Assembly (NCBI GenBank): GCA_045647355.1
Contig: JAZRMF010000001.1
Coordinates: 350,679-414,678, forward strand
Length of the DNA stretch: 64,000 bases
Direction of reading: 5' to 3'
Source: Candidatus Enterousia sp.
GTDB lineage: Bacteria; Pseudomonadota; Alphaproteobacteria; Rs-D84
Below the pieces are notes generated by a model, which was given only the letters and a program-made list of their open reading frames with translations, had not been told where the DNA came from and did no database searches. The position numbers and the translations under genes were made by a program. Of the stretch, positions 8,828 to 35,248 are shown piece by piece (positions within the stretch are counted from its first letter, which is position 1; each line of letters begins with the position of its first letter).

Positions 8828-8852
8828 ATTTAGTGATTAATGGTTAGAAAAC

Positions 8853-15383: not shown

Positions 15384-18300
15384 ATGAAGTTTGTTAGACT
15401 TTTGGTTTTTGCTTTATTCTTTGCGCCGTTTGGTGCATTTGCGGCACCAAATGATTTTACGGTTGCAGCGCAGTTGTTGGCCGCGGCAAAAAATGCCGAT
15501 ATTCAACAGGTTCAGATTTTGGTTAATAATGGCGCAAATATAAACTATGTCGATAGTACAGGGTTATCATTGGTTTGTACGGCATTGATGAATAACGATT
15601 TGCGTGCGGCGCAAATTCTGCAAATGTATGGTGCAGATGCATCACAATGCGACCGACAAATTAAGAATTACAAGACACAAAATTCGCCCGGGCGAACGGG
15701 TGGGCTATTCGGTGGACTATCCACCGCCCAGGGATTAACATTGGCGGCGGCGGGTGCCGCCGTTGTTGTAGGTGGACTTTATTTATTAACGGATGTATTT
15801 GATCATGATAATCATAACCATACATCGTCATCCAGTGATGGTAATCACGGTGGGGGCTCTGGCGGCGGCGGTGGTGGTTCTTCGAATAGTGGTACCGTAT
15901 GGTCTGCGGGTGCATTGCCATATGGGCCGGCGATGTTAAATGCAACCCAAGAAACCGCAAATTACACAAATAATTTGGCATTGTATTACACGCAATATGA
16001 TGCCGATAATGAAGAAACGGTTTATTACAAAGATTTTAATTTGATGAACAGTTACGCAGGGAATAATTCCCAGAATTATTTGTTGTTAATGCGTGGCTAT
16101 TCGCCGTTGGCGCGTGGATATTTGGGAATGCGTACATTACGTGATACATCAACAAATACACCACTTGCCTTGTATAATGCCCAGGGGGATTCATTATACA
16201 ATCTTGGAACAAATGAACATGTTATGGGCGGGCGTCCGGTTAATGTTGCGTTAATTACGGCAAATGGTGTTAATGCCGTAGATGGGTCTTCGTTGCAGGA
16301 TAAATTTGTGTTGTGGACACAACATTCTGGACCCACCAGTTTAGTGGCGGCAAGTAATGACAAGATGTCCAGCAAGTATTACAACAATATGATAACATTC
16401 GGTGCAAATGAACTTTCGATTATTGATGATACATCGGTGGAAGATCCTTTGACGTTGGCAGCGTTTGATTTGTCGGGTGCGGGTACCGCAATACATAATG
16501 GTTCTGCAACCGGTGACGATAATCTGTTGGGTAAAATAGTCGGCGGAAATTTTGAAACAGGGTATAACGGCGATTTTGCGGGCTTTATGCCAAATGGTCA
16601 AATGACAATTTATCGCACAGGTGGCGGCAAGAAACTGATTGCTGCGGATAATTCAATTTCAGGCTCGTATAATTTTGCTGGCACAGAGATTGCGGTTAAC
16701 GATACGATGACATTTGATAGTGTTGGTGTAACCGCAAAGGTTGCGGCAATTGGTACGGTTGGTTTGGGCGATGCAACGAAAAGTATAGCATGGTCTTATG
16801 TCGTTGATGGGCAAACGAAATATTTTTATGGGTATTTGTTGGGTAATTTATACTATATAGATTTTGATGGCGATGGAATGCCAGATGCCGCCTATGCCAC
16901 CAGTTCTGGAGATTTAGTTTTGGTTAAACGTGTAACCAGTGAAGGTGTCGATTACTATAATTACACGGCATTGGTAAATGCGGCACTGCGTTCAACCGGG
17001 GATTTAGAAAAGGGGCGTTCGCGGGTTGATATAATTGCAAATGCGGATGTAATCGAACCACTGCACAGCCGTTCGGCATATACGGTGCGCGATATGTTGG
17101 CAAGTGATTTTGATGATTTGTATTTCGCGGCTTTTGTGGAAAGTAGTTACGGTGCAGAATCTACAGATAATGGTTTTATTCCGCGGGTCCAGGCCCAGGC
17201 GTTCTTTAATGGGTTGGGATCGTTGTATAAACCGTTAACTATTTTTTCTACGGGCGCATCCATTCAAAATACCGGGGCATTGTATGCAGATTCACTGCAA
17301 GAAGCCACGTTTGAAAATGCCGCGCCATTGGTGTTTGATAATCTGAATCATTTATTTATGTCGGTTGTTGCGGTCGGGGCCAGTACGTATGGAACAACAA
17401 CAATTGCCGCGAATTCTGATACAAACACGAACAAATATAGTTTGGCACAGTGGGCAAGTAATGTCGATGGTACAACAAACTATTATAAATCACGTATTTG
17501 TGGAATTGCGGGAACTGGAAATGCGGGTGCGATGGATCCATGGTGTTTCGCATCGGTTGGAATTACCGATGAAATGGCGGTCGCATCGGCGGCGGGTGCG
17601 GCGGGTGTGCTGCGTTCGGCATTTTATTACATGACACCCCAAGAAATATTTACACTGCTTGCGTTGACGGCGGATGGTCCATATCTTAATCGTTTGTCGG
17701 CGGGAACCCAGTTAAATCAGACATCTTTGGCGGCGCATTTACGTTCTTTGTATAATATGCCGTCCGAATATCAATACGAGATAACTGATGATGCCAGTTA
17801 TTTAGAGGTGTTTAAACGTGTGTTTGGTTATGGTGTGATAAATCTTGAACGCGCGACAACACCGGGAACAAATCTGTATTATTACACAAATGGTAAAATT
17901 GTTTCCAGTGCGGGTAATGCGTATTGGCGCGCGGCGACAAATACAAATATGCGTATGTCGCCGGCGTTGAATCTGGGACGTGGTGCAATTAACATTGCGG
18001 CGTATGATATACTGGAAAGTGTTGATGGTTCAATGCGGTTACCGCGTATTTGGGAAAGTAATGTTTCTTTTGGTAATGAATCGCGTAGCGCGCTGTATAT
18101 GGGCGATGTGTTGGGTGATTTGCATACACGTGACGTTGCCGATAATACAATGCATATTGGAAATATGTCGTTTGGTTTTGCGCGTTCGGAACGTTTGTAT
18201 AATGACAGTATGGGTGGGTTGGACAATATGCATTTGTCATACGCGCATGACAATTGGAAATTGTCTGCTGATTATCAGCGTTATTTGACGGATGGTGAAT

Positions 18301-19097
18301 CGCGTTTCTATGGAATGGCGAATCCGATTTTATCTTTGGCGTCGCGTGCAACAACCGGTGGTATAGATTACAGTTTTGGTAAATGGTCATTTGGGGCGCG
18401 CGGATTTACCGGTGCAATAACGGACGAAGGTTTATTGGAAAACGACCCAACGATTTCGTCATTGTATGAACCGATGAGTTTGGGAACGATTGCGGGTGCG
18501 CAATCTGAAATAGGGTGGAACAATGAAAAGTTCGGTTTCAAAACATCGGTTGGTTCAATGCACGAAGATAACACCATGCTGGGTGCGTATGCAACGGGGT
18601 TGTTGGAAATTGGTGGTGCCAGTACGAACTATGTCGATGTTGATACGTTTTGGAAAGTGTCAGATATGTTGAAACTGCGCGCGCGTGCGACATTTGCACA
18701 CACCACACCGAACATGGACAGTGGCGCGATTATAGACGTGTCTGGATTGAATTCTAATGCGTTTGCGTTTGGTGCGGATGTTGGAAATATTAATTTGGGT
18801 GTGTCATTACCATTGGCGGTGTTTGATGGTCACATGAGTTATGATTACGCGAACTATGAAATAGTGGATACAGATGATGGTCGTTATGATTTGGCGATAA
18901 CTGATTTCGGTACAAGACGTGTTAGCATGTCGCCGGCGCATCGCGAAGTTCGTCTGAATGCGACATATCGTCATAACTTTGGGCCGTTTACCGATGGTGC
19001 GATTGGGTTTATATACCGTATAAATCCGAACAATACCGATGAATTCGGAAATGAATCTATATTCATGATGAAAATGTCACATATGATTGGCATTTAA
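15384..19097 (+). CDS. large secreted ankyrin-repeat protein (1237 aa) with Gly-rich segment and beta-rich C-terminal region
   Basis: Signal peptide MKFVRLLVFALFFAPFGAFA. Ankyrin repeats (…LLAAAKNADIQQVQILVNNGANINYVDSTGLSLVCTALMNNDLRAAQILQMYGADA…). A GGGSGGGGGGSS run. Alternating-residue beta pattern near the C-terminus. Confidence 0.75.
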   Translation: MKFVRLLVFALFFAPFGAFAAPNDFTVAAQLLAAAKNADIQQVQILVNNGANINYVDSTGLSLVCTALMNNDLRAAQILQMYGADASQCDRQIKNYKTQNSPGRTGGLFGGLSTAQGLTLAAAGAAVVVGGLYLLTDVFDHDNHNHTSSSSDGNHGGGSGGGGGGSSNSGTVWSAGALPYGPAMLNATQETANYTNNLALYYTQYDADNEETVYYKDFNLMNSYAGNNSQNYLLLMRGYSPLARGYLGMRTLRDTSTNTPLALYNAQGDSLYNLGTNEHVMGGRPVNVALITANGVNAVDGSSLQDKFVLWTQHSGPTSLVAASNDKMSSKYYNNMITFGANELSIIDDTSVEDPLTLAAFDLSGAGTAIHNGSATGDDNLLGKIVGGNFETGYNGDFAGFMPNGQMTIYRTGGGKKLIAADNSISGSYNFAGTEIAVNDTMTFDSVGVTAKVAAIGTVGLGDATKSIAWSYVVDGQTKYFYGYLLGNLYYIDFDGDGMPDAAYATSSGDLVLVKRVTSEGVDYYNYTALVNAALRSTGDLEKGRSRVDIIANADVIEPLHSRSAYTVRDMLASDFDDLYFAAFVESSYGAESTDNGFIPRVQAQAFFNGLGSLYKPLTIFSTGASIQNTGALYADSLQEATFENAAPLVFDNLNHLFMSVVAVGASTYGTTTIAANSDTNTNKYSLAQWASNVDGTTNYYKSRICGIAGTGNAGAMDPWCFASVGITDEMAVASAAGAAGVLRSAFYYMTPQEIFTLLALTADGPYLNRLSAGTQLNQTSLAAHLRSLYNMPSEYQYEITDDASYLEVFKRVFGYGVINLERATTPGTNLYYYTNGKIVSSAGNAYWRAATNTNMRMSPALNLGRGAINIAAYDILESVDGSMRLPRIWESNVSFGNESRSALYMGDVLGDLHTRDVADNTMHIGNMSFGFARSERLYNDSMGGLDNMHLSYAHDNWKLSADYQRYLTDGESRFYGMANPILSLASRATTGGIDYSFGKWSFGARGFTGAITDEGLLENDPTISSLYEPMSLGTIAGAQSEIGWNNEKFGFKTSVGSMHEDNTMLGAYATGLLEIGGASTNYVDVDTFWKVSDMLKLRARATFAHTTPNMDSGAIIDVSGLNSNAFAFGADVGNINLGVSLPLAVFDGHMSYDYANYEIVDTDDGRYDLAITDFGTRRVSMSPAHREVRLNATYRHNFGPFTDGAIGFIYRINPNNTDEFGNESIFMMKMSHMIGI

Positions 19098-19612: not shown

Positions 19613-20851
19613 TTATGACAATTTGTGGATAACCAAACCGCTACGCAGTTTTGGTTCAAACCATGTTGTCTTTGGTGGCATAATATTGCCGGTATCGGCG
19701 ATGTCAATGATTTGGCGCATTGTGACGGGATACAGCGCAAATGCCGCGACCATTTCACCGCTATCAACGCGTTTCTGTAATTCGCCAAGGCCGCGAATAC
19801 CGCCAACAAAATCTATACGTTTGCTGGTACGCAAATCGCCCAGGTTCAATATTTTATCAAATACCAAATTAGACAGAACTGTTACGTCCAAAACACCGAT
19901 TGGATCGTTGTCGTTGTATGTGCCGGGCTTTGCGGTTAATGAATACCATTTGCCACCCAGATACATTCCAAAGTTATGCAATTTTGTTGGTTTGTATATT
20001 TCGGTGCCCATTTCCACAACATCAAACGATTCGGAAAGTTTCGCCAAGAATTCTTCTGGGGTCAAACCGTTCAAATCTTTGACCACGCGGTTATAGTCAA
20101 TAACTTTCAATTGGCTTTCTGGGAATATAACGGCCAAGAAATAGTTATATTCTTCGTTCCCGGTGTGGTTCGGATTTTGTTCGCGTTTTTCTGCACCAAC
20201 ACGTGCCGCGGCGGCGGTTCTGTGGTGACCGTCTGCGACATACATTGCCGGAATGTTTTTGAATATTTCGGTTATACGTGCATTGATTGCATCATCACGA
20301 ATTGCCCAGAACGTGTGGCCAAAGCCATCGGCCGCAACAAAGTCATATTCTGGTTCATGTGTTTTGACAAAGTTTTCAACAATTTCGTTCATTTCGGCAA
20401 CGTCCGGATATGCAAAGAACACCGGTTCGATGTTTGCGTTTTGGATACGGACGTGAATCATACGATCGTCTTCTTTATCTTTACGTGTCAATTCATGCTT
20501 TTTAATTTTGCCGGTCATATAATCATCGACATTTGCCGCCGCAACCAAACCGTACTGTGTACGACCGTCCATTGTTTGGGCATAGATATAATACATTTCC
20601 TTATCGTCTTGGACCAACCAACCGCGATCTTGCCACAGTTTGAAATTTTCAACCGCTTTGTCATATACAGGTTGGCTGTGTTCATCGGCAATTGGGTCAA
20701 AATCTATTTCTGGTTTGATAATATGCAACAGTGATTTTTCACCGGCCTCGGCCTTGGCTTCGACAGAATTCAAAACGTCATATGGACGTGAAGCAACTTC
20801 GGCCGCGATTTCTTTTGGTGGGCGAACACCCGCAAATGGTTTTATTTTCAT
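19613..20851 (-). CDS. DUF1015-family protein
   Basis: N-terminus MKIKPFAGVRPPKEIAAEVASRPYDVL matches the conserved M.I.PF.A.RP…PYDV start of DUF1015 proteins. 412 aa. Confidence 0.7.
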   Translation of the reverse strand: MKIKPFAGVRPPKEIAAEVASRPYDVLNSVEAKAEAGEKSLLHIIKPEIDFDPIADEHSQPVYDKAVENFKLWQDRGWLVQDDKEMYYIYAQTMDGRTQYGLVAAANVDDYMTGKIKKHELTRKDKEDDRMIHVRIQNANIEPVFFAYPDVAEMNEIVENFVKTHEPEYDFVAADGFGHTFWAIRDDAINARITEIFKNIPAMYVADGHHRTAAAARVGAEKREQNPNHTGNEEYNYFLAVIFPESQLKVIDYNRVVKDLNGLTPEEFLAKLSESFDVVEMGTEIYKPTKLHNFGMYLGGKWYSLTAKPGTYNDNDPIGVLDVTVLSNLVFDKILNLGDLRTSKRIDFVGGIRGLGELQKRVDSGEMVAAFALYPVTMRQIIDIADTGNIMPPKTTWFEPKLRSGLVIHKLS

Positions 20852-20945
20852 GATATCTCCTTCATGTTAAGCCAATGGATTATAAACCGATTTTTATAAA
20901 AGGCAACTGTGATATTCTGTATATGTATTTTTTATTTTTTTGCTC

Positions 20946-20975
20946 TTGACCTGATTCGGTGATTTTTGATAAAAT
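20946..20975 (+). promoter_or_regulatory. sigma70-like promoter (TTGACC-17-TG-ATAAAAT, extended -10) flanked by a 7-bp inverted repeat ctgattc/gaatcag
   Basis: -35 at 20946-20951. TG and -10 at 20967-20975. The IR at 20951-57 and 20982-88 brackets the -10 and is a possible operator. Confidence 0.4.
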
Positions 20976-20984
20976 ACCTGTGAA

Positions 20985-21205
20985 TCAGATGGGAATCTGG
21001 TTCGGGACTGTAGCAAGCCCACAAGGTACCGGTGCAACGGCATCGTAATCTGTTTGATTCCATGTTATTGCACCGTATATCGTCCCCGAATTTAATATGT
21101 CGGGGTGTCGTTGGATATACAACAGGGTCACACCGAAGTTCAACGAAGTCATTGTATCTTGTGATTTGCTAACACCCCGACCGCCAGAATCCTTGGCGGT
21201 TTTTG
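20985..21205 (+). ncRNA. candidate structured 5' leader or small RNA (promoter to intrinsic terminator, no ORF) upstream of the DGR-target paralog pair
   Basis: About 220 nt between the promoter and the hairpin ccgccag-aatcct-tggcgg plus TTTTT (21181-21204). No ORF with an RBS. The next gene starts at 21240. Confidence 0.3.
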
Positions 21206-21239
21206 ATAAGGCAAACAAACGAAAATGGGGGGATATTCC

Positions 21240-21788
21240 ATGCAAACAAAAACATTATTCGCATCAGTAATCGCGGCATTGGCGATTGTGCCGGCATTCG
21301 CGGCCGACCCAACACCGGGTGATAAAACGGTGACATCGGTTGGTTATGTGACACGTACACGTCAACCAATAATTGAGGCAAAACAAGGGGATTACGTTGT
21401 TATGTATCCGAACGATGATAACGGCGATGCCGATGGCGAAGTCCAAGAACGTGGCATTATCACGAATGTCTATAATTATGACGAAGGTAATGAATTGGTG
21501 ACGGTCGGCGGTGTGAACACGGCATTGGCGGAAAAGCAAGATGCGATACCGGCGGGCACATCGGGTAATTTGGTGACATATAACGGTCAATCGGGTTCGG
21601 TTGGTTCTGCGGCGGTGTATAATGCGACCGGCACGTACAACAGCCAAACAGGTTCCCTGGTCCAGGCCCAGCATGTAAACACCGCGGCGCAAAATGCGTT
21701 TAATGCGCATGTGACATGTTCTAATCCCCCAGATTGCACATTATGGACAATAAATGAATTGTCGGGGACATATGTACCACATAATTAA
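21240..21788 (+). CDS. secreted protein, N-terminal paralog of the DGR target protein (no VR)
   Basis: GGGGGGA RBS and signal peptide MQTKTLFASVIAALAIVPAFA. TSVGYVTRTRQPIIEAKQGD aligns with TSVSYVTRTTQPMLEAKSGD of the 21814 protein. Confidence 0.65.
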   Translation: MQTKTLFASVIAALAIVPAFAADPTPGDKTVTSVGYVTRTRQPIIEAKQGDYVVMYPNDDNGDADGEVQERGIITNVYNYDEGNELVTVGGVNTALAEKQDAIPAGTSGNLVTYNGQSGSVGSAAVYNATGTYNSQTGSLVQAQHVNTAAQNAFNAHVTCSNPPDCTLWTINELSGTYVPHN

Positions 21789-21813
21789 TAGTTGGTGAAA
21801 GGGGGACAACAAT

Positions 21814-22827
21814 ATGAAACGAATAATATCCATAATTGCAATGACGGTGGCGATACCATGTGTTGCCATTGCGGATAATGAACCGTCACCAACAACGACA
21901 ACATCGGTTAGTTATGTGACGCGAACGACCCAACCAATGTTAGAGGCAAAATCCGGGGATAAAGTTGTGACATACGGCACAACCAATGGTGTGGTTGGCA
22001 CGCGTAATGTATTGGACGATTTGGACGGCACGACGACAACAGACCCGAACCTTGCCACCGCCGAGGCATTAGAGATGGCCATAGGTGAAAAACAGAGTGA
22101 GTTTATAAACCTGTCGAATCGTAATGTTTTGACATATACCGGGTCGCAATATAATGTGACATCTACACCAATATATGACGATACGGTAAATACATTTGCG
22201 AATGGTTTGGTTGATGCGGCGACATTAAATACGGCGGTAACGGATGCGGCAAATGCCGAATTCACCCAGGTTGATGAAAACGGTACCCCCAGTTCAAACG
22301 GTTTATTGTGGCGAATAAATGATGCGCCGGCGGCGACATTGGGTGTGGATGCGAACCTGCCGGCGAATATTGCGGGAACCTCATATTGTTATAAAAGGCA
22401 TAATGGCCAGAATGGCAGTGCAGGTAATTGTGGCAGCACGGTATATAATGCCATGCAAAAGGGTGAATGGGGCACGGTGTTTCCGTATGGCACGGTTACG
22501 GGGATAAGTGTGTGCAGCAATATCGAACCATCGGTACAATATGGTACCGGTGATGATAAATGGTACCAGTATGGTCAGGTATCAACGAATCAAAGCGGTG
22601 TGCAATCGCAATATGACACATGGGTATCGAACGGTCGACCGGCGACGCCCGTGGGTGGATATTGCTATTGCAAGTTAACAAATCCATCAATTTCGGCGGC
22701 GCGTTGGGTGTTCAGGCTCTCGGACTCCGTTTCGAACTGTGCGCTCAACTGTGCGAACTTCTGCGCGAGCCGCGTCCAGCGCGGCTCCGATTTCCGGGGC
22801 GCTGTGTTCGGGGCGGCCGCAAATTGA
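21814..22827 (+). CDS. DGR target protein: secreted protein whose last ~43 codons are the variable region (VR)
   Basis: RBS GAAAGGGGGA and signal peptide MKRIISIIAMTVAIPCVAIA. C-terminus …RWVFRLSDSVSNCALNCANFCASRVQRGSDFRGAVFGAAAN. The VR is 130/130 alignable to the TR with differences only at TR adenines. Confidence 0.85.
   Translation: MKRIISIIAMTVAIPCVAIADNEPSPTTTTSVSYVTRTTQPMLEAKSGDKVVTYGTTNGVVGTRNVLDDLDGTTTTDPNLATAEALEMAIGEKQSEFINLSNRNVLTYTGSQYNVTSTPIYDDTVNTFANGLVDAATLNTAVTDAANAEFTQVDENGTPSSNGLLWRINDAPAATLGVDANLPANIAGTSYCYKRHNGQNGSAGNCGSTVYNAMQKGEWGTVFPYGTVTGISVCSNIEPSVQYGTGDDKWYQYGQVSTNQSGVQSQYDTWVSNGRPATPVGGYCYCKLTNPSISAARWVFRLSDSVSNCALNCANFCASRVQRGSDFRGAVFGAAAN
22691..22820 (+). repeat. 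DGR variable repeat (VR)
   Basis: 130-nt copy of TR 22985..23114 with 15 mismatches, every one at a TR adenine (A to G, C or T). Its 3' 50 nt are identical to the TR. Confidence 0.9.
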
Positions 22828-22887
22828 TGTATCGGTATAGCCAATAAAATGTAGCACATTTTATTGGCGATCGTACGGGTGGGGTTT

Positions 22888-22906
22888 GGGGCGGGTGTCC
22901 CGCCCC
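22888..22906 (+). other. GC-rich hairpin (8-bp stem ggggcggg/cccgcccc, 3-nt loop) downstream of VR; candidate DGR target-recognition hairpin
   Basis: Perfect 8-bp G/C stem 67 nt after the VR end. Comparable to the hairpin beside the VR in characterised DGRs. Confidence 0.45.
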
Positions 22907-22984
22907 AGTAAGAAGATTCCCGATGTAACACGGGAATAGGTTGTATCGCCGTATTCAGTTGCGTGCGTTGAACGTTGGTCGTTC

Positions 22985-23114
22985 TTTCGGCGGCGCGTTG
23001 GGTGTTCAAGAACTCGAACTCCGTTTCGAACTGTGCGAACAACTGTGCGAACAACTGCGCGAACAACGTCCAGAACAACTCCGATTTCCGGGGCGCTGTG
23101 TTCGGGGCGGCCGC
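22985..23114 (+). repeat. DGR template repeat (TR)
   Basis: The invariant copy is AAC-rich (…gcgaacaactgtgcgaacaactgcgcgaacaacgtccagaacaac…). It encodes N at the positions that vary in the VR and lies between the target gene and the RT. Confidence 0.9.
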
Positions 23115-23358
23115 TCCTTTGGGTGTGATTAGTAAAAAGGAAACTTTTTCGCCAACCTGCGGGACAAAGTGCATGGGCACTTTTCAGATGCGTAAAAAAC
23201 ATCTGTTTTAATACCTTGTTACATCAAAAGGTGGGGTGGTACGACCTGTGATGATGATATGGGATTTGTCCCATGTCCGTCCAAATACAAAACGCAGGGG
23301 ATGTTTGGGCCAGTAGTGGGTTCTGTATCGTCGCGAACGCCCGGAACATCCGATTGTA

Positions 23359-23703
23359 ATGGAATATAAAATGACATTGGATGAAATAGAACACCTTAAT
23401 AAAACAACATGTCCACGATTTGCCAATTTTGCACGTGAACAGTTGCCTATGCCGGGTGTAAAAAAATACCTTAATGATATTTTAAATCGGGAAATATTGG
23501 TTACAGATTTTAGAATAACAAAATCTAAACGCCGTGAAGGAACCGAATGTATGCAATTCCAATTCAAATTGGATGATACAATTTGTGTTGCCTTCACCGG
23601 CAGTGCCGTTTTAATGGACCAAATGCAAACCGCACGGGATGGCGGTAATATGCCTTTCGTTGGAACAATAGTCAAAATAGATAAATATTTTTCTTTTTCG
23701 TAA
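23359..23703 (+). CDS. small ORF immediately upstream of the RT, candidate DGR accessory protein
   Basis: 114-aa ORF on the same strand whose stop lies 7 nt before the RT ATG. Its position suggests an accessory gene, but no sequence feature recognisably matches Avd. Confidence 0.35.
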   Translation: MEYKMTLDEIEHLNKTTCPRFANFAREQLPMPGVKKYLNDILNREILVTDFRITKSKRREGTECMQFQFKLDDTICVAFTGSAVLMDQMQTARDGGNMPFVGTIVKIDKYFSFS

Positions 23704-23709
23704 ATCGCC

Positions 23710-24723
23710 ATGAAAACATACAATAACCTGTGGGAACAGTTCATTTCTGTTGAAAATTTTGAATTGGCTGCACGCAAGGCTGTCAAAAGCAAAAAATCAA
23801 AAAAATCGGTGCAAAAATTCCTGCGTAATAAAGATGTGCTGTTGAAAAAACTGCGACAGCAACTGATAGAAGGCAAATTCAAAACATCAGAATACAAGAC
23901 TTTTGTCATACACGAACCAAAAGAACGTGTCATATATAAATTGCCCCTGTATCCCGACCATATATTGCATCACGCGTTGATAAATGTGTTGGGACCGATT
24001 TGGCAAAAAATGTTTATACATGATTCTTATGCGTGCATACCGGGACGGGGATTGCACGCCGCATCAAAACGCACCATGGATTTCGTTCGCAGAAATAAAT
24101 ACGTGTTGCAATGCGATATAAGAAAATTCTATCCAAGTATAAATCATAATAAAATGATGGAAATTATCGCCCGAAAAATAAGCGACAGACGAATACTTAA
24201 AATACTTGATGAAATTGTGCGTTCGGTCGGCGGGGAAACAAACCTGCCGATTGGTAATTTGACAAGTCAATGGTTGGGAAATGTCTATCTTAATGAACTT
24301 GACCATTTTGTTAAAAGTGAACTGCGATGGCGGGATTATATTAGATATTGTGATGATTTTTGCCTGTATGGGAATGATAAAAATACCCTAAAACATATGG
24401 CACAAAAAATTAAAGTTTTTATTACGGATGGTCTAAAACTTGTGTTTTCACGCAGTATCGTGCGCCAGACGGTTTTTGGGGTGGCGTTTGTCGGGTACAG
24501 GCATTTTAAGAATTTTATATTGCTTAAAAAATACGCTGCACGAAAAATAAAACACAGAATTATGAATATAATAAATCATTCGGATATCAGTGAACACGCC
24601 ACCGGGCAAATTGCTGCGTTCTGGGGGTGGGTCCGATGGTCGTGTTCGTATAATTACTGTCGAGGGTTCGTTGGAAAAAAAGGGGAAAATAAAAATCTTT
24701 TACCCTTTTTTAATTGGATTTAA
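23710..24723 (+). CDS. DGR-type reverse transcriptase
   Basis: RT motifs YKLPLYPDHILHHALI and PIGNLTSQWLGNVYLNELD (the DGR-typical I-G-x-x-T-S-Q rather than QG…SP), plus a YCDD catalytic box. ~337 aa with no maturase or endonuclease domains. Confidence 0.9.
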   Translation: MKTYNNLWEQFISVENFELAARKAVKSKKSKKSVQKFLRNKDVLLKKLRQQLIEGKFKTSEYKTFVIHEPKERVIYKLPLYPDHILHHALINVLGPIWQKMFIHDSYACIPGRGLHAASKRTMDFVRRNKYVLQCDIRKFYPSINHNKMMEIIARKISDRRILKILDEIVRSVGGETNLPIGNLTSQWLGNVYLNELDHFVKSELRWRDYIRYCDDFCLYGNDKNTLKHMAQKIKVFITDGLKLVFSRSIVRQTVFGVAFVGYRHFKNFILLKKYAARKIKHRIMNIINHSDISEHATGQIAAFWGWVRWSCSYNYCRGFVGKKGENKNLLPFFNWI

Positions 24724-25954: not shown

Positions 25955-27667
25955 GTGTTATATCCAGAGAAAGCAGAAAAATCTATGTTAACGGATGTTG
26001 TTGATTTTTTTCCGGATATTCAAAGCATAAATCCAACCAAGTATACGGGATTTGTGCTGTTTTGTGATACCGATAAAGAGGCCGTGGCCATACAATACCA
26101 ATTGACGCATGATTTTAATATGCCTTCGAGTTTAGATATTGATTATTATGGCGCGCGTTACATTGTGCCGTTGGAAGATGTGGATGCGGATGTTGCATTA
26201 AAATTTATTCGCCGTGGTTGGAGTTGGGATCGTGACCAGCAATTCAACCGGTATTTAATCACACTGTACAGTGAAGATGCCGCAAATAAAATCTATGATA
26301 TAATGATTGCGCATGGATATAACGTGACGTTATCACCCAATAAAATGCAATTGGTTGTAAAGTGCATAGCAGATTCCCCGCGGAATACCGCCATCACAGA
26401 ATTAAAACGTGAATTTGATACCTTTGAAAGAAAGTCGCCAAAATCCATAGACGATTATTTCAACAAAATTTTATTTAATGGCGTAATAGAAAACCCAGAA
26501 TATCGTAAAGTTCGCGAACAAAAATTTTCGCCCGAAACAATTAAACAAAACAAAGATTTAATTATTCGTGAAATCGTGTATAGATATTTTAACATTATAA
26601 TTTACGCCTATTTGACTTGTCCAAAATTCGATGCAAACAAATTAGATGACACAACAATACAAAACATAAATCTTGTGCGCGACTTTTTGTGTTCTGTGGC
26701 GGACAAATATATCGATACACAAATAGATGTCGCAGGCAAGGCATCACAACAACCAACCATTAATTTTGGTTGTCTGACAACGTGCAGGGAATACGATAAT
26801 TTCAACAACGTATTAAACCTTGCCAAGAAGTGGCACCGTGCAGATATAAAGAACGAAAGGGCAGAAAACCGCAATATCCGTATGTCACAACGATGGGCAT
26901 ATAAATTGATGGATTTGAATGATGGCTATTATATCGTTTGTCTGGGGGGGCAAGAAGCATTAGATTATGAAAACCGGACATTAAAACACCCCGTTGAAAT
27001 ATTTTATCAAGATGATATTTACGAAGGAATCGCCAGATATTCTATACGCAAAGGATACACGCCAATTCTGACATTGAAAGTAGATAATGACAAAGTGGTT
27101 AGATGCTATGGCTATGAAAATGTCGTTCCGTGTGATAGTACTCTGCGCGCGGTGGTGCGTACGTTTATGCGGGAACGTGAGTTAACCATCCCCGATAACA
27201 GCTGGAATAAATTAATCGGGTACATAAAGAAAAATGGCAAACTATATGACATAGATAATTTACCCAAAGGTTTTATATTAGATGATATATTGAACTTGGA
27301 AGAAATGGGCCTGAAAAAATTACCTGATATGTCAACGGTAAAGGTAAATGGTCATCTTTTGTTACATGGTAATAATTTACATGACCTGAAAGGGGCGCCA
27401 TACAGGGTTTCGGGAAACCTTGATGCCAGTGGAAATCCGTTAGAATCGCTATACGGATTGCCACGTGAGATTGGTGGACTGATTTTGTTGCCAAAAGATA
27501 AATTAACCGCTGAATCATTTGTGCCATTGTATATCGAAGACAAATTGAAAAAGGGTGATGTTCTGGGCGTGGATGAAACGGTTAGCACCGCGTGGCAAGA
27601 TCAAATCGAACAAAGAAAAATTGGCATTGCAAATATAATTGCATCCTTGCGTGATAGAAACCAATAA
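25955..27667 (+). CDS. hypothetical protein with C-terminal leucine-rich-repeat-like region
   Basis: 570 aa. …LDDILNLEEMGLKKLPDMSTVKVNGHLLLHGNNLHDLKGAPYRVSGNLDASGNPLESLYGLP… resembles LRR units. Confidence 0.5.
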   Translation: MLYPEKAEKSMLTDVVDFFPDIQSINPTKYTGFVLFCDTDKEAVAIQYQLTHDFNMPSSLDIDYYGARYIVPLEDVDADVALKFIRRGWSWDRDQQFNRYLITLYSEDAANKIYDIMIAHGYNVTLSPNKMQLVVKCIADSPRNTAITELKREFDTFERKSPKSIDDYFNKILFNGVIENPEYRKVREQKFSPETIKQNKDLIIREIVYRYFNIIIYAYLTCPKFDANKLDDTTIQNINLVRDFLCSVADKYIDTQIDVAGKASQQPTINFGCLTTCREYDNFNNVLNLAKKWHRADIKNERAENRNIRMSQRWAYKLMDLNDGYYIVCLGGQEALDYENRTLKHPVEIFYQDDIYEGIARYSIRKGYTPILTLKVDNDKVVRCYGYENVVPCDSTLRAVVRTFMRERELTIPDNSWNKLIGYIKKNGKLYDIDNLPKGFILDDILNLEEMGLKKLPDMSTVKVNGHLLLHGNNLHDLKGAPYRVSGNLDASGNPLESLYGLPREIGGLILLPKDKLTAESFVPLYIEDKLKKGDVLGVDETVSTAWQDQIEQRKIGIANIIASLRDRNQ

Positions 27668-27736
27668 CAACGTGTCACGCGCCGGTAATTTTTCATTTGC
27701 AAATGGGAAAGTGTTGGTATATAATGCGCTCTGCCT

Positions 27737-27810
27737 TGGGGCATAGTTTAATGGTAGAACATCGGACTCTGACTCCGCTAGTATTGGTTCGAATCCAGTT
27801 GCCCCAACCA
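27737..27810 (+). tRNA. tRNA-Gln (anticodon CTG)
   Basis: Cloverleaf with a 7-bp acceptor stem tggggca/tgcccca, anticodon loop CTCTGAC, T-loop GGTTCGAATCC, and an encoded CCA. Confidence 0.85.
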
Positions 27811-27902: not shown

Positions 27903-28538
27903 ATGAAACAGGATTTCTATATATTTAGACATGGTCAAACCGATTACAATGTAGAAAAGAGAGTCCAAAGTTTCTTGGATATACCGCTAAACAGTAATGG
28001 AATTGCACAAGCACAGGTGTTGGCCAAGAATTTATCAAATGTGCAATTTGATTGTATATATAGTTCGACATTATCCAGGGCTTTGGATACTGCAAAAATT
28101 GTTTTGGGTGACAAAAAAGTGCAAATTATAACTGACCCGGGCTTACGCGAAAGAAACCTTGGGATACTGTGTGGCAAGATAATGAATCTTACAGATGCAC
28201 CAGCAGATACATTGGTTGACATGAATAAAGATAAAATAGATATGCCTGCGGCTCTTTTATTTAATGGTGATTATGCGCCGGAAAATGGTGAAAGTGATAA
28301 TATGTTCGTTCAGCGTGTCTGTGATACGATAACAAAAATTGCCAAAAATACAAATGCCAGGACCGTTGGCATCGCAACCCATGCCGGGGTTATTAGTGTT
28401 TTTGTTCGGCGTTTTACCAATTTCAATTTTAGTAGTATGCCAAATGCAGAATACATCAAAATGCAATGGGACGGGGAAAAATTCAGTTTACCAGAACCAC
28501 CAGATTGGTTGCTACAAACACAATCAAACCAGAAATAG
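27903..28538 (+). CDS. histidine phosphatase (phosphoglycerate-mutase-like) family protein
   Basis: RHGQTDYN catalytic motif near the N-terminus. AAGGTGG RBS before the ATG at 27903 (the ORF track starts at a GTG at 27894). Confidence 0.75.
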   Translation: MKQDFYIFRHGQTDYNVEKRVQSFLDIPLNSNGIAQAQVLAKNLSNVQFDCIYSSTLSRALDTAKIVLGDKKVQIITDPGLRERNLGILCGKIMNLTDAPADTLVDMNKDKIDMPAALLFNGDYAPENGESDNMFVQRVCDTITKIAKNTNARTVGIATHAGVISVFVRRFTNFNFSSMPNAEYIKMQWDGEKFSLPEPPDWLLQTQSNQK

Positions 28539-28634
28539 TTTATCTTTCATCTCTTCAATCTTTTGCCCGATTTTGATTATGTCGGTTTGCGAATTGCCCA
28601 GACAAGTGCAACCACAGTTCCCAAACTTGCCCAC
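28524..28634 (-). CDS. small ORF (36 aa, GTG start) embedded in repeat module copy 1: MGKFGNCGCTCLGNSQTDIIKIGQKIEEMKDKLFLV
   Basis: Against copies 2 and 3, substitutions fall at codon positions 1 and 3 with none at position 2, and indels are multiples of 3. Its 3' end overlaps the convergent phosphatase gene. Confidence 0.35.
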   Translation of the reverse strand: MGKFGNCGCTCLGNSQTDIIKIGQKIEEMKDKLFLV

Positions 28635-28745
28635 CGGGGCAAGTTTTTATTTATTTTCCAATACCTACAAAAAGTTCAAAAGTTTAAAACATTGTGATTT
28701 TTCGCCACTTTTGAACCCCAGAAAAAAACGGTTCTTGTAATGGTA
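28539..28745 (+). repeat. intergenic repeat module, copy 1 (conserved core 28539..28625 plus hairpin and T-run 28626..28652)
   Basis: The core tttatctttcatctcttcaatcttttgcccgattttga…tcggtttgcgaatt…caaccacag aligns with 30461.., 31990.. and 32695... The distal part (cgccacttttgaac…ggtactataaat) also recurs after copy 2. Confidence 0.7.
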
Positions 28746-29525
28746 CTATAAATATTTATTTTTATTCTGTAAAAGTTTATCCAGTATATCTATTGGTATG
28801 GGTTTTCGATTATCAATATCGCCATACATCCCAAGTTCCCTGTTTATTTTGCTCGGGCTGTGATAATCACTGCCGCCACTGACCAACAAATCATTTTTTC
28901 GTGCTAAATCTGTAACAAAATCTGTATATTCATCTGTTTGGCCGGACTGATATACCTCTATACCATCGATTCCGTATTGTTTTAGTTCGCAAATAAATTC
29001 TTGCAAATTATTACTATCAATGCCTTTTGTCCTGTTTGGGTGTGCCAATATCGCCAAACCGCCAGAACGATGAATCATATCTATTGCCTCGCCATATCCA
29101 AACGGCGGTTGCAGAAAATGTTCAATAACAAATGTTTTGTCTGAACCCTTGTCGGTATCAATCATCATTTTTATAAAAGCATCCCTGGCACCAATCAGTG
29201 TTTCATATTTTCCCTTGGTATAACCATAGTTTTTTAGCGATTGTTCTATGTATTCCCTGCGTATGGCGGCTTTGTTATTTATCTCGTCAAACCGTTTTAG
29301 AAATAATCCGATAATGTGTGTATTTCTTTCACAAGAAACCTCTATCCCATTTATAAAGTTGATACCGCATTGCTCTGCCGCTTTTGCCGCCGCATGCAAT
29401 CCATCGACATTGTTATGATCTGTTAAAGCAATATATTTTAGTCCCTTTTTGGTGGCCAAATCAACCAATTCACTTGGGGACAACGCCCCATCCGAAGCAT
29501 TACTGTGCGTATGAAAATCTATCAT
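28746..29525 (-). CDS. PHP-domain phosphoesterase
   Basis: MIDFHTHSNASDG… and C-terminal GGSDYHSP metal-binding motifs of the PHP (TrpH/YciV-like) family. Confidence 0.8.
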   Translation of the reverse strand: MIDFHTHSNASDGALSPSELVDLATKKGLKYIALTDHNNVDGLHAAAKAAEQCGINFINGIEVSCERNTHIIGLFLKRFDEINNKAAIRREYIEQSLKNYGYTKGKYETLIGARDAFIKMMIDTDKGSDKTFVIEHFLQPPFGYGEAIDMIHRSGGLAILAHPNRTKGIDSNNLQEFICELKQYGIDGIEVYQSGQTDEYTDFVTDLARKNDLLVSGGSDYHSPSKINRELGMYGDIDNRKPIPIDILDKLLQNKNKYL

Positions 29526-29597
29526 TCTAATCTCTTTTTTTCTTTACATTCATTTGGGGCATTATATCATAGAAACCAACAATGAAAAGGTTTTATT

Positions 29598-30365
29598 ATG
29601 ATAATTGGTATGGTCAGATACGCAATCCCGAACAGTTTTATGAATTCGAATAATTCGCGTTCTTTGGTGCAATTATATGAAGATCCATATTTTTCAGACC
29701 GGTTTAATATCTTTCGCAATATAACACTGCCATCATTTGCACAGCAAACAAACCAGGATTTTACCCTGTGTGTATATCATACGAACTTGATTCCAGATGA
29801 TAAAAAGGTATTGTTTGATAACCTTGCCAAACAATATCCATTCCTAAGAAATGTTTACACAGCCGGCAAAATGGACATTCCGGATGATTTGAAAGAACGG
29901 CAAATGCTGACATTCCGAATAGATAATGATGATGGCATGGCCTTGGATTTTATTGAAAAATTGCAACAAATCAAAGAAATCGTTGGGAATAAAACATCAA
30001 ATTTTGCGATCAGCATTCCACATATGCGAAAAATCGCCAGGATTGATAATTTTTTGTATCAAACATTGGAAACGGATTTTATATCAAATTCTATGGGCTT
30101 AGCGTACCTTGGGAACGATGGGCGCACTGTTATGAACCTGGGTAATCATACCAAGGTTGCTTATTCCACCCCAATGCTGATGGTTGCCGGCAATGGCGGT
30201 CTGCAAGTGATAAATGGTTATAATGTGGCCAATGGTTTTAAGAAAGTATATCAAAACCAATCGGATATGGCTATTTTGAATCAAAAAGATATGCAAGATC
30301 TGCTGGTCAAAGACGGATATGCCAAAATGGATTTATCTTGCCTGCCAATCATAAAATCCAGATAG
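29598..30365 (+). CDS. hypothetical protein (possible GT-A-like fold; DNDDG motif)
   Basis: 255 aa with RBS AAAAGG. No confident family assignment. Confidence 0.5.
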   Translation: MIIGMVRYAIPNSFMNSNNSRSLVQLYEDPYFSDRFNIFRNITLPSFAQQTNQDFTLCVYHTNLIPDDKKVLFDNLAKQYPFLRNVYTAGKMDIPDDLKERQMLTFRIDNDDGMALDFIEKLQQIKEIVGNKTSNFAISIPHMRKIARIDNFLYQTLETDFISNSMGLAYLGNDGRTVMNLGNHTKVAYSTPMLMVAGNGGLQVINGYNVANGFKKVYQNQSDMAILNQKDMQDLLVKDGYAKMDLSCLPIIKSR

Positions 30366-30437
30366 TGTTTGTGTATTTTGCATATTACATATTTTTAACT
30401 TATTGCCCACACAGGCATAATTTATTAATAAAATTAT

Positions 30438-30524
30438 TTAATACAGATTCGGTAAACCTAATTTATCTTTTACTTCATCAATCTCTTGCCCGAATTCTAA
30501 CAACTCGGTTTGCGAATTACACAT
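30438..30524 (-). CDS. small ORF (28 aa from ATG; 36 aa from an upstream TTG) in repeat module copy 2: MCNSQTELLEFGQEIDEVKDKLGLPNLY
   Basis: Paralog of the copy 1 and copy 3 small ORFs. Conserved NSQT…(I/F)GQ(K/E)I.E(M/V)K(D/E)KL. Confidence 0.35.
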   Translation of the reverse strand: MCNSQTELLEFGQEIDEVKDKLGLPNLY

Positions 30525-30662
30525 ATAGCACAACCAAAGATTCAAACACCCGAAAGGGTGTTTTAATTTTTTGTTCGGGTCGAAAGGTTGAAATTAAAAA
30601 GTGGTAAAAAAATCACCATTTTCGAACTTTTTATACTATAAAAAGTTTTATTTTTTAATGAT
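30441..30662 (+). repeat. intergenic repeat module, copy 2 (core 30461..30540, hairpin acacccgaaagggtgt plus T-run)
   Basis: Aligns with copy 1 through tttatcttttacttcatcaatctcttgcccgaattct…tcggtttgcgaattac…cacaaccaaag and the distal part. Confidence 0.7.
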
Positions 30663-31187
30663 TTATTTGTTTTTTAGGTAAAAATCCAGTGCATGATATG
30701 CACTATCAAAAGCCAAAGGTAGATCTGCTAAGTCTTGCGGATTTTCTATGGAATACCATTTTACATCAGATACTTCGTCTCTTTGTAAATTGAATTTCGC
30801 ATCATCATCAATTTTTGCAACAAAAAAAGCATCACACGTTTTGTATTGAAAATTTTTGTATTCGTATGTATTAGGAAAAGTACACAAATATTTCAAAATT
30901 GTTATATTGATACCTAATTCTTCACGACATTCACGAATACACGCCTGTTCGGTACTTTCATCGTGTTCTACAAAACCACCAGGTAAACCAAGTAAGCCAA
31001 ATTTAGGTTCTTTGGCGCGTACTTCAAATAATATTTGACCGTGGGTATTTATAATAATCACGGCGACCGCTGTTGCAGAATTATTGTATAAAACAAACCC
31101 GCAATCAGGACATTCCCATTTACGATTATTTATATTTTTGACATTTTGACCGGCACAAATAGGGCAAAATTTAAAGTCATTTTTCAT
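30663..31187 (-). CDS. NUDIX hydrolase with N-terminal zinc ribbon (NudC-like architecture)
   Basis: CPIC…CPDC zinc ribbon and NUDIX box GGFVEHDESTEQACIRECREELGI. Start taken at MKNDFKFCPICAG (the ORF track extends to 31259). Confidence 0.75.
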   Translation of the reverse strand: MKNDFKFCPICAGQNVKNINNRKWECPDCGFVLYNNSATAVAVIIINTHGQILFEVRAKEPKFGLLGLPGGFVEHDESTEQACIRECREELGINITILKYLCTFPNTYEYKNFQYKTCDAFFVAKIDDDAKFNLQRDEVSDVKWYSIENPQDLADLPLAFDSAYHALDFYLKNK

Positions 31188-31282
31188 ATAAACTGCTTTT
31201 AATAAAATTATTCCAATATAAACTAAGTTGAATAGTACAAAAAATCTATCATTTTTCAAGTTGTTATATTACAATTCAATTT

Positions 31283-31681
31283 ATGAAAGTACTTACTTTA
31301 TATCAACCATATGCGGCTGCGATAGCATTGGGCTTAAAGAAATATGAAACGCGATCTTGGGCAACATCTTATCGCGGGCTTTTGGCGATTCATACATCGG
31401 TAAAAAAACTATCGCCAGAATTAAAGAAATTAGCCGAACATTATCAAATAACAAATCTTGAATATGGAAAGATAATTGTTATTTGCGAATTGCAAGATTG
31501 TATCGAAATGACAGATTGTTTTATACAATCTCAATCAATCACGGAAAGGAATTTTGGAATTTGGACGCCAGGTCGTTTTGCGTGGAAAATAAAAGTATTA
31601 AAAATCTTGAAAGAACCAATTTCTGTTCGTGGTTATCAAAAGCTTTGGAATATAGATTTAACCGAAGAGATTGTAAAATGA
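31283..31681 (+). CDS. ASCH (PUA-like) domain protein
   Basis: MKVLTLYQPYAAAIALGLKKYETRSWATSYRGLLAIHTS matches the ASCH consensus M..L.I.QPWA..I..G.K..E.R.W.T.YRG.L.IHA. Confidence 0.6.
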   Translation: MKVLTLYQPYAAAIALGLKKYETRSWATSYRGLLAIHTSVKKLSPELKKLAEHYQITNLEYGKIIVICELQDCIEMTDCFIQSQSITERNFGIWTPGRFAWKIKVLKILKEPISVRGYQKLWNIDLTEEIVK

Positions 31682-31989
31682 TTATAACAATTTGTGGCAG
31701 TTTGAAATTTCAACAAGAAATGATAACCATAGCACAAAAGATGACTTTCAGGGGGCATTGTGTAATCACACCAATTTTCCAAACCTCTAAAAATCCAAAT
31801 TATACCGAAGAACAAATACAAAAGTTAAAAAATGCACATTTAAAAAAAATAGATATTTCTGATGCGATATTGGTTGTAAATGTAAATAATTATATCGGCG
31901 ATTCTACAAGTTTAGAGATTGAATATGCTGAACAACACAAGAAACAGGTGTTGTATTATACAAACCTTATGCGAGAATTAGAAAAATAA
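31678..31989 (+). CDS. hypothetical small protein (103 aa); possibly nucleoside 2-deoxyribosyltransferase-like fold
   Basis: The ATG overlaps the upstream stop (ATGA). The ORF track's longer form 31483.. overlaps the ASCH gene in another frame, so 31678 is preferred. Confidence 0.45.
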   Translation: MIITICGSLKFQQEMITIAQKMTFRGHCVITPIFQTSKNPNYTEEQIQKLKNAHLKKIDISDAILVVNVNNYIGDSTSLEIEYAEQHKKQVLYYTNLMRELEK

Positions 31990-32094
31990 TTTCTCTTTCA
32001 TCTCATTAATCTCTTGCCCAATCTGAATCAAATCGGCTCGCGTTTTGCTAGCATCCCACAACCAAGATAAAATAAAAATATCCCATCGGGGCAT
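31978..32094 (-). CDS. small ORF (38 aa from MPRW…; ORF track gives a 93-aa form 31978..32259) in repeat module copy 3: MPRWDIFILSWLWDASKTRADLIQIGQEINEMKEKLFF
   Basis: Paralog of the other small ORFs, two codons longer (in-frame indel). Its C-terminus overlaps the convergent 31678..31989 gene by about 12 nt. Confidence 0.35.
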   Translation of the reverse strand: MPRWDIFILSWLWDASKTRADLIQIGQEINEMKEKLFF

Positions 32095-32148
32095 TTTTTT
32101 GCATTTCTGCATTTTTTGTAATACAGTGGAACAAAAGAGGTAATTTCC
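31990..32148 (+). repeat. intergenic repeat module, copy 3 (core 31990..32066)
   Basis: tttctctttcatctcattaatctcttgcccaatctgaatcaaatcggctcgcgttttgc…ccacaaccaag aligns with copies 1 and 2. A T7 run at 32094-32100. Confidence 0.7.
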
Positions 32149-32694: not shown

Positions 32695-32765
32695 AATTTA
32701 TCTTTCAACTGCTTATGCCCAATAATTCAGTTCGCGGATAGTGCATATTTGCGTTGCGGGCATTT
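32695..32765 (+). repeat. intergenic repeat module, copy 4 (degenerate)
   Basis: tttatctttcaactgcttatgcccaataattcagttcgcggatag… shares the copy 1 start. The antisense ORF is interrupted by TGA, leaving the remnant …IGHKQLKDKF. Confidence 0.5.
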
Positions 32766-32810
32766 TTATTTTTTTTATTTTTATGATATAATTCTCATAG
32801 AGGTGTGTTT

Positions 32811-34507: not shown

Positions 34508-34557
34508 AGGGTATATGGTATCACTAATTAAGAAAATGTCAATATTGCAAGTCTATA

Positions 34558-35121: not shown

Positions 35122-35248
35122 GCGTGTTATCCTTTTGTTTGTTGAAAGTATCCTAGTATTCGGGTGTGGAAAAATCTAGTCTTTTATCTTGCCATAAGGT
35201 ATTTTTTCCTTTACGATTAAATTAAGAAAAAAATCAAAGGGGTAATGC

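Follow-up and report, generated by a model that had tools for sequence, protein, structure and literature searches.

We analysed a 64,000-nt stretch of DNA (hereafter the window) from Candidatus Enterousia sp. (GenBank assembly GCA_045647355.1, contig JAZRMF010000001.1, positions 350,679 to 414,678), which lies on a 445-kb contig of an alphaproteobacterial metagenome-assembled genome (MAG), and characterized a diversity-generating retroelement (DGR) within it. All features of the element are located on the forward strand. The first gene encodes a secreted 182-aa N-domain paralog (21240-21788), followed by the 337-aa target gene (21814-22827), whose 3' end carries the variable repeat (VR, 22691-22820). 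Downstream of them, we found the template repeat (TR, 22985-23114), a structured non-coding spacer (Sp) RNA of ~250 nt (23115-23370), an accessory gene for a 110-aa protein with a predicted oligonucleotide/oligosaccharide-binding (OB) fold (23371-23703), and the gene encoding the 337-aa DGR reverse transcriptase (RT, 23710-24723). Taken together, the data described below indicate that this is very probably a complete and working DGR of the canonical kind, carried on the chromosome.

To define the repeats, we compared VR and TR with each other and with the VRs of related contigs. The two 130-nt repeats are 88% identical and differ at 15 positions, all of which have A in the TR and another base in the VR (7 G, 4 C, 4 T). 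The coordinates and mismatches given in a preliminary description of this locus were thus reproduced exactly. With 26 adenines among the 130 nt of the TR, the hypergeometric probability of finding 15 of 15 mismatches at adenines is P = 4.6e-13. All 15 substitutions are at codon position 1 or 2 in the frame of the target gene (21814-22827), and the translations agree with the description in that the TR encodes N at the residues that differ in the VR (TR copy, FKNSNSVSNCANNCANNCANNVQNN; VR copy, FRLSDSVSNCALNCANFCASRVQRG). The VR specifies 43 residues of the target (294-336 of 337) and ends 7 nt from the stop codon, that is, at the extreme C-terminus of the protein as had been described. Invariant ends of 23 nt (5') and 36 nt (3', GC-rich, a candidate initiation of mutagenic homing sequence) flank the variable part. 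The theoretical repertoire is 4.5e15 DNA sequences and, because 22 of the 26 adenines sit in the 11 AAC codons of the TR, about 1.8e15 protein sequences without stops at these codons. No further VR-like copy of the TR was found on either strand of the whole 64-kb window. A reverse-strand open reading frame (ORF, 22665-23180), annotated as a gene in some assemblies, was rejected because it is merely the complement of VR and TR.

To examine natural diversification, VRs were compared between assemblies, using fetched contigs with related cassettes or loci (L-numbers). We found 56 homologues of the target; none has a Pfam domain, and all come from uncultured Alphaproteobacteria of the gut or rumen. 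Among homologues with 88-91% identity, 11-13 of the 14 TR-adenine codons differ from those of the target, all 29 other VR codons are unchanged, and just 6-9% of positions outside the VR differ. Of 10 related contigs that were fetched, 8 have the TR unchanged, and in L030/L031 and L035 it differs by a single base. Six distinct VRs were recovered, each with substitutions at 13-16 of the 26 TR adenines (50-62%), and every one of the 26 adenines is substituted in at least one of them. An adenine substitution density of ~50% has also been reported for Bacteroides and Bordetella DGRs (bioRxiv 10.1101/2024.11.15.621889). The six VRs differ at 9-22 positions, 89-100% of which are at TR adenines; only 2 of 624 non-adenine cells differ, one of them being a TR change copied into its VR. 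Family-wide, the TR-adenine codons have a mean column entropy of 3.11 bits, compared with 0.92 for the remaining VR positions and ~1.5 elsewhere. The preliminary description had named VR invariance in populations as evidence to the contrary; what we found are VRs that differ between samples almost solely at TR-adenine positions.

L032 and L033, which share a locus, have identical RT protein, TR and Sp, yet their VRs show 9 differences, all at TR adenines, indicating that the VRs have diversified since the last change elsewhere in the core. The TR of L030 and L031 carries T in place of G at position 125, and their VR shows the same change, the footprint expected if information passes from TR to VR. 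From these comparisons, the element looks active in nature. One further contig, L014, carries two VRs for one TR (4440-4570, 5817-5947, 6694-6824); in one pair, 13 of 13 mismatches are at adenines. Its Sp region is swollen to 825 nt and full of short tandem repeats (AAAGTACAAAGTAC...).

The closest solved relative of the RT is the Bordetella phage bRT (8ub7; E = 7e-42, residues 2-316, full length). The catalytic aspartates, the YCDD (YxDD) box and the previously noted IGNLTSQ motif (IGSLTSQ in bRT) are aligned between the two proteins. Group II and retron RTs, with which a grouping would have spoken for another class of enzyme, matched at ~1e-21 or weaker, and the RT groups instead with the Bordetella DGR RT. 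Together with the adenine-specific repeat pair, this supports the earlier assignment as a complete DGR. PHROG 1423 (RT) matched at 1.4e-91 and RVT_1 was the only Pfam match, while none of the NCBIfam group II, retron and DRT models reached its cutoff (group_II_RT_mat, 112.9 bits against 300; retron St85, 65 against 235; Drt3a, 51 against 200). The protein is conserved to ~24656, and its last ~20 codons vary by insertion site. More distant relatives (32-40% identity) were found in MAGs of Nanoarchaeia and Woesearchaeota. An RT with 63% identity is located at L013:8001-8945, with no OB gene or TR/VR pair detectable within 8 kb; this element may be decayed or split.

Between TR and RT, the preliminary description placed a 114-aa ORF and an untranslated spacer of ~240 nt. 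Both exist (the non-coding part is 244-256 nt), but the start is more likely at 23371 (110 aa) than at the alternative ATG at 23359 (114 aa), and the ORF is more than a spacer ORF, as it encodes a conserved accessory protein in the place of Avd. Gene callers start at the 110-aa form, and an exact look-up of the 114-aa form returned nothing. The predicted fold has the order beta1-3/alpha/beta4-5, forming a five-stranded OB barrel with a helix between strands 3 and 4. Thus, the accessory protein is confidently predicted to be an OB fold, without the four-helix bundle of Avd. The family comprised 65 clusters in one search and at least 310 in a further one; no cluster has a Pfam domain, and all those with taxon-specific names are from Alphaproteobacteria. 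It is under clear purifying selection, with 20 invariant columns in 57 sequences. The isoelectric point (pI) is 7.7 (family mean 8.1), compared with about 9.5 for the basic Avd.

Neither Pfam (E <= 0.01) nor NCBIfam nor PHROG models matched the accessory ORF, and sequence-profile searches of the PDB, run with the alignments of the accessory protein and of the target, yielded no meaningful match. The hhalign probability between the accessory family and true Avd was 0.08%, and Pfam detected no Avd inside the 3.7-kb mobile unit described below. The Pfam bAvd models (PF22296 / PF05635) recognised the accessory ORFs of the distant archaeal RT relatives at ~1e-20. The published accessory classes are Avd, HRDC, MSL and CH1, the last being acidic and 160-169 aa long (PMC5758913). 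Full-text literature searches for DGR with OB-fold or single-stranded DNA-binding protein (SSB) found nothing relevant, the PAG1-4 candidates of Wu et al. 2018 standing outside the comparison.

We found 127 relatives of the accessory protein on IMG/VR viral contigs. In 80 of 83 viral loci with the OB gene, a DGR-type RT (34-50% identical to that of the window) directly adjoins it, with the OB gene immediately 3' of the RT in nearly all of them. The linkage persists across gene orders (TR-Sp-OB-RT in Alphaproteobacteria; RT-OB in phages, L017 and the archaeal virus ANMV-1) and across RT identities from 76% down to 34%. A different order was observed in a 'Ca. Enterousia' MAG (L004:6035-8948), with the TR at 6035-6168, the OB gene at 6422-6751, the VR at 7119-7252 and the RT at 8001-8948; its target lies between the accessory gene and the RT. 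In ANMV-1 (L246, KP703175.1), the 98-aa protein AJP62065.1 (4016-4312) is encoded directly after the RT and matches the accessory family (hhalign 99.5%, E = 8e-23), with no match to Pfam bAvd. A figure of Paul et al. 2015 labels an 'Avd' in the ANMV-1 DGR, and the basis stated in the accompanying passage, size and charge, is given for Nanoarchaeota ORFs (PMC4372165). Because of this label, the OB gene has probably been seen before, without recognition as a different fold. The fold and the RT linkage suggest that the OB protein may bind single-stranded DNA or RNA, and we consider it probable that it is the functional partner of the RT.

The TR-to-OB interval (210-340 nt) shows block conservation across loci whose RTs are 56-76% identical, and RNAalifold predicted 46 pairs in 7 helices for the Sp RNA. 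Of the alignment cells, 92.7% are paired, compared with 40-50% when the partners were slid as a control; 14 pairs are changed on both sides, versus 6.0 +/- 1.7 in shuffles (0 of 500 reached the observed value). In the predicted structure, the TR 3' end together with TCC (23110-23117) forms a long-range helix with 23233-23240. The other elements are three hairpins inside 23147-23205, a single-stranded A-rich segment (CCAAATACAAAACGC, 23281-23295) and a long stem-loop with an inner hairpin (23299-23351). A covariance model of 23280-23354, trained on 8 loci and searched against 1.04 Mb, picked up 8 new alphaproteobacterial loci (E 1e-23 to 1e-9) as well as 17 viral ones (E <= 0.01). With the training sequence of the window added to these 25, all 26 matches are on the RT strand just 5' of an OB or RT gene, with zero matches elsewhere in the 1.04 Mb.

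The DNA around the repeats is also structured. An AT-rich 13-bp hairpin is located 19 nt 3' of the VR (22840-22868), and L030 retains this stem via one compensatory pair change and one wobble. The GC hairpin that had been noted downstream of the VR is located 67 nt 3' of it (22887-22907), with an 8-9 bp stem and a TGT loop. Here, 22888-22895 pairs with 22899-22906, and the stem reaches 9 bp if the T-A pair 22887-22907 is counted; folding of the region gave z = -5.2. A similar hairpin (GGGGCGG...CCGCCCC) follows the VR of L016. Immediately 5' of the TR, a conserved element (22916-22984) consists of the hairpin ATTCCCG...CGGGAAT followed by TAGGYTGTATCGCCGTATYCAGTTG. It is kept in L003, L006 and L018 and partly in L016, and its identity is 98.8-100% in L028, L029, L032 and L033 and 96.3% in L030.

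The target begins with MKR, a hydrophobic stretch and AIA|D, which reads as a Sec signal peptide-like sequence, followed by an N-domain and a Cys-rich C-domain (~185-334) bearing the VR. In the AlphaFold (AF2) model, the N-terminal half is poor and residues ~185-334 are confident (predicted local distance difference test score, pLDDT, ~90). The modelled VR forms a strand (299-303) and two helices (306-323 and 325-331), with 10 of 14 variable residues on helices. Six cysteines are invariant in 57 of 57 sequences (C192, C234, C284, and C309, C313 and C317, which form C-x3-C-x3-C), and C206 and C286 are nearly invariant. On a helical wheel, Cys and Ala occupy 0-180 degrees and most variable positions lie on the opposite face. 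This suggests that disulfides of C309, C313 and C317 might staple the variable helix to the domain core. We take the C-x3-C(-x3-C) helix motif and the C-x-C strand motif to recall cysteine-stabilised alpha/beta motifs.

A C-type-lectin (CLec) or formylglycine-generating enzyme (FGE)-like fold had been suggested for the target C-terminus, but no CLec, FGE or immunoglobulin structure or profile matched the VR domain. Neither the whole target nor the C-domain alone had a Pfam, NCBIfam or PHROG match, while positive controls worked; the C-domain had no BFVD match, and hhalign against a CLec target gave 0.05%. We consider it fairly likely that the VR scaffold is genuinely other than a lectin fold. 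No lipobox or pilin features were detected in the target.

A full profile search collected 1,622 representatives of the target family, in which the N-domain and C-domain also occur apart. Tandem arrays of 4-7 C-domains are found in proteins of 755 to 6,218 aa (P0233, P0282, P0291, P0299, P0321). Two of these five scanned proteins (P0291, P0321) have Listeria-Bacteroides repeats, and P0291 also has an Endonuclease I domain. Since tandem copies occur in giant proteins and the non-DGR copies retain the Cys pattern, the C-domain sequences point to an extracellular binding module, of a family without a Pfam model. The target is plausibly a surface or secreted adhesin-like binder for attachment to a partner or host.

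Upstream of the target, the paralog (21240-21788) shares 35% identity with target residues 6-170 (E = 5e-14). It had been described as a VR-less paralog; the paralogy stands, but it covers only the N-terminal ~170 residues of the target, the whole VR-bearing domain being missing. The paralog accompanies the cassette in L003, L018, L028-L033, L037 and L040, and N-domain-only proteins are common within the target family. A promoter-like site (20946-20975; TTGACC, 18 nt, TAAAAT with TG; 10 of 12 matches) marks the left cassette edge and is followed by a structured 5' leader (20976-21239; minimum free energy -89.6 kcal/mol, z = -4.8). The leader ends in a terminator-like hairpin (21181-21199) and a T-run (to 21204). 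It is 96-99% identical in L028, L029 and L032, conserved with substitutions in the more distant L003, and cleanly absent from L030 and L018. It looks like a riboswitch- or attenuator-type candidate cis-regulator of the paralog-target operon. A metagenome scan with the leader 14-mer AACACCCCGACCGC gave chance matches in soil and sediment contigs, none of them leader-like. Rfam, searched at gathering thresholds over the whole window and at E <= 1 over 20850-23720, returned two tRNAs only and no known family for the Sp RNA or the leader.

The host is an uncultured alphaproteobacterium of the gut or rumen, and the related loci likewise belong to MAGs from gut or rumen, those of 'Ca. Enterousia' among them. 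Genomes of Rs-D84/Enterousia are smaller than ~1 Mb and lack the TCA (tricarboxylic acid) cycle, respiration and standard transporters (PMC12306168). The DGR cassette spans ~3.7 kb, has no integrase within it and occurs at at least 3 different chromosomal sites. Compared with L028 and L029, homology of 94.5-95.4% extends over 20942-24656; beyond it the flanks are unrelated, with BOF to one side and OmpA to the other. In L028 and L029, the cassette sits among housekeeping genes, with ffh, ftsJ and dxs on one side and ompA and rpsF on the other. L030 and L031 have 21212-24661 in common with the window, beside HlyIII. Since the right cassette edge lies inside the last ~20 codons of the RT gene, the RT tails differ between copies. 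The RT, OB gene, TR and Sp are 96-100% identical across cassette copies, with ORFs and catalytic motifs intact.

In the syntenic L032 and L033, the core (leader, TR, Sp, RT) is 99-100% identical and the flanks are 80-82% identical, and this contrast indicates that the cassette has been exchanged between lineages. The high-identity tract reaches slightly into the flanking genes. From these sequences, exchange at the shared locus appears to be by homologous replacement, and a separate route would lead to new loci. Retrotransposition of a whole-operon transcript was considered as the cassette mover and rejected, because the -35 box is in the shared block and because the same-locus exchange tracts extend into flanking genes.

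We compared the element with known DGRs. Like the DGR of Bordetella phage BPP-1 (mtd-VR, avd, TR, Sp, brt), which has the closest solved RT, it shows the IGxLTSQ motif, adenine-specific TR-to-VR divergence, AAC codons, a VR at the target 3' end with a GC-rich invariant 3' end, hairpins after the VR and a structured Sp after the TR. The Bordetella DGR RNA contains a template:primer duplex, a Thumb Ring and a bRT-binding stem-loop (bioRxiv 10.1101/2023.10.23.563531). The window Sp is predicted to have a duplex between the TR 3' end and Sp, an A-rich single strand and a long terminal stem-loop, and by analogy these may be equivalent to the three Bordetella elements; no counterpart of the Avd-binding stem-loop could be assigned. 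Unlike BPP-1, the window has an OB-fold protein between Sp and RT and no Avd, its Sp is ~250 nt rather than 140 nt, it is chromosomal rather than phage-borne, and its target is neither Mtd-like nor detectably a C-type lectin.

The viral RT-OB DGRs (IMG/VR contigs such as L041, L091 and L109; ANMV-1) share the module of RT (34-50% identity) and OB gene (37-52% identity of the protein) and the Sp 3' stem-loop just upstream of it, and no bAvd was detected in the viral loci examined. Their order is VR-TR-Sp(~140 nt)-RT-OB, whereas the OB gene of the window is upstream of the RT. Their targets are Mtd/CLec receptor-binding proteins with the TR peptide LLAGGNWNNGTN...NIG, in contrast to the VR scaffold of the window; the L041 target, for example, matches Pfam mtd_2nd, with no bAvd nearby. 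The DGRs of the candidate phyla radiation (CPR) and DPANN (Paul et al.; Wu et al. 2018) are a parallel in host lifestyle and likewise are single-target cellular DGRs with a secreted protein. The archaeal relatives differ in having true Avd genes (bAvd ~1e-20) and FGE-sulfatase/CLec targets, neither of which is found in the window. The DGRs of Legionella (LdtA), Treponema (TvpA) and Bacteroides (type V pilus tip adhesins) are also chromosomal or borne on integrative and conjugative elements and diversify the C-terminus of a signal-peptide surface protein. In Bacteroides pilus loci, a related non-variable structural gene likewise stands beside the variable one (bioRxiv 10.1101/2024.11.15.621889). 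Unlike the window element, these DGRs rely on Avd (with or without Msl, or HRDC), and their VR domains have the CLec fold.

Based on these comparisons, we tentatively propose that the RT-OB DGRs may form an undescribed sub-class in which a small OB-fold protein of the single-strand-binding type replaces Avd, with disulfide-stapled-helix display in the alphaproteobacterial branch. As a possible reading, this sub-class would be widespread, covering phages, the archaeal virus ANMV-1 and reduced-genome gut Alphaproteobacteria, and the scaffold would be a 6-8-cysteine extracellular domain. For the window element itself, the best account is a single operon that starts from the promoter at ~20946 and encodes the N-domain paralog and then the secreted 337-aa variable protein. 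The TR and the structured Sp RNA would be transcribed and, by analogy with the Bordetella phage DGR, bound by the RT with the OB accessory protein. cDNA synthesis would be primed inside Sp, beside the TR 3'-end:Sp duplex, and errors in copying the TR would be confined to its 26 adenines. The resulting cDNA, mutagenised at adenines, would then replace the VR via the invariant repeat ends and the hairpins downstream of the VR. The variable residues, mostly on an exposed helix face, would form the tunable binding surface of a protein made by a reduced-genome and probably partner-dependent gut bacterium. In this scheme, the priming site, the ligand and the display on the cell surface are presumed.

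Several points weigh against the overall reading of a complete and functional chromosomal DGR of this kind. The structural claims for the OB fold and the VR domain come from AlphaFold models that were built on alignments of 57 sequences, and the role of the OB protein as a substitute for Avd and/or a binder of cDNA is deduced from these and from gene linkage. One TR codon (AAG) can mutate to a stop. The diversification is read from differences between assemblies, and identical VRs occur in different samples (L030 = L031; L032 = L037 = L040), which suggests that retrohoming may be episodic or low. The same recurrence of VRs would be expected of a fossil DGR that no longer retrohomes, its VR differences recording past activity and spreading by whole-cassette recombination, and since cassettes are exchanged between genomes, VR alleles could indeed travel along with them. 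We consider this very unlikely, because the near-identity of RT, OB gene, TR and Sp across copies, with ORFs and catalytic motifs intact, is at odds with decay; because the 9 VR differences between L032 and L033 stand beside an otherwise identical core; and because the TR change of L030 has already been copied to its VR.

The OB ORF could also be a syntenic passenger in a DGR lineage that works without an accessory protein (architecture A of Wu et al.). Of the catalogued DGRs, 29% have no recognised accessory gene (PMC5758913), and the RT of L013 likewise lacks a detectable OB gene. Nevertheless, the RT-OB linkage outlasts changes of gene order and RT divergence, the family is under clear purifying selection, and Avd is missing from the 3.7-kb unit that moves between loci; a passenger is therefore unlikely. 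Another alternative is a DGR of a phage or mobile element caught as a prophage remnant, with the target as a phage receptor-binding protein. On viral contigs, the RT-OB module is abundant and diversifies Mtd-like tail proteins, the cassette moves between loci, and a large serine recombinase is located ~5 kb downstream in L032-L034. Against this, Pfam and PHROGs detected no genes for phage structure, packaging or lysis in the window, and the genes present include rpoA, clpX, a surA-like gene, thyX, SLT and tRNAs, in agreement with the chromosomal, cellular setting described at the outset. In L028 and L029, housekeeping genes adjoin the cassette on both sides. The target carries a signal peptide, resembles no viral structure and belongs to a cellular family, the C-domain of which is also found in giant surface proteins that have Listeria-Bacteroides repeats. 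A prophage origin is thus highly improbable.

In the wider window, we found genes for a 1,379-aa YadA-anchor autotransporter (37790-41929) and a 1,237-aa ankyrin-repeat protein (15384-19097), and six ORFs of 724-975 aa with no Pfam match (in 3205-13291 and 54028-62221) amid housekeeping genes. Uncharacterised proteins, probably located at the surface, make up a large share for a ~1-Mb genome. Downstream of the DGR, the region just past the CBAH gene (region 25955-27810) is variable; in the window, it holds an ORF of 570 aa that matched no family, and then tRNA-Gln. At the equivalent position, L032-L036 have ORFs of 324 and 958 aa, and some have a large serine recombinase. From these differences in gene content, the DGR appears to adjoin a variable island. 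The region 28000-36000 has a low GC content (0.32-0.38 versus ~0.43 elsewhere), which hints at a foreign or mobile origin, and encodes a 468-aa protein (33101-34507) that has an HD domain and also matches, weakly and below threshold, the ART-PolyVal ADP-ribosyltransferase family.

Gut microbiomes commonly contain DGRs. What sets this element apart as a variant is that a compact, horizontally exchanged cassette of a reduced-genome alphaproteobacterium combines an OB-fold accessory protein with helix display of the VR. To our knowledge, the current understanding of the DGR mechanism rests on a single system, the Bordetella bRT-Avd-RNA complex. A large natural RT-OB lineage, with a closely related RT and a similar Sp RNA, provides a comparison for what Avd does, and an SSB-like partner may bear on the least understood step, in which the cDNA replaces the VR. 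In surveys, annotated VR domains are systematically C-type lectins (PMC8144416). If true, helix display, with the variable face opposite Cys-x3-Cys-x3-Cys, would break the rule of C-type-lectin folds for all DGR variable regions and would be a second structural solution for massive variation, as well as an attractive small scaffold for engineered DGR diversification. If confirmed experimentally, the OB-fold accessory protein and the helix-display VR would be of interest to DGR specialists. Finally, the presence of a conserved and exchanged DGR, directed at a secreted binding protein, in a gut lineage with genomes of <1 Mb and without core metabolism supports the idea, raised first for CPR and DPANN organisms, that partner-dependent microbes use DGRs to track attachment targets.

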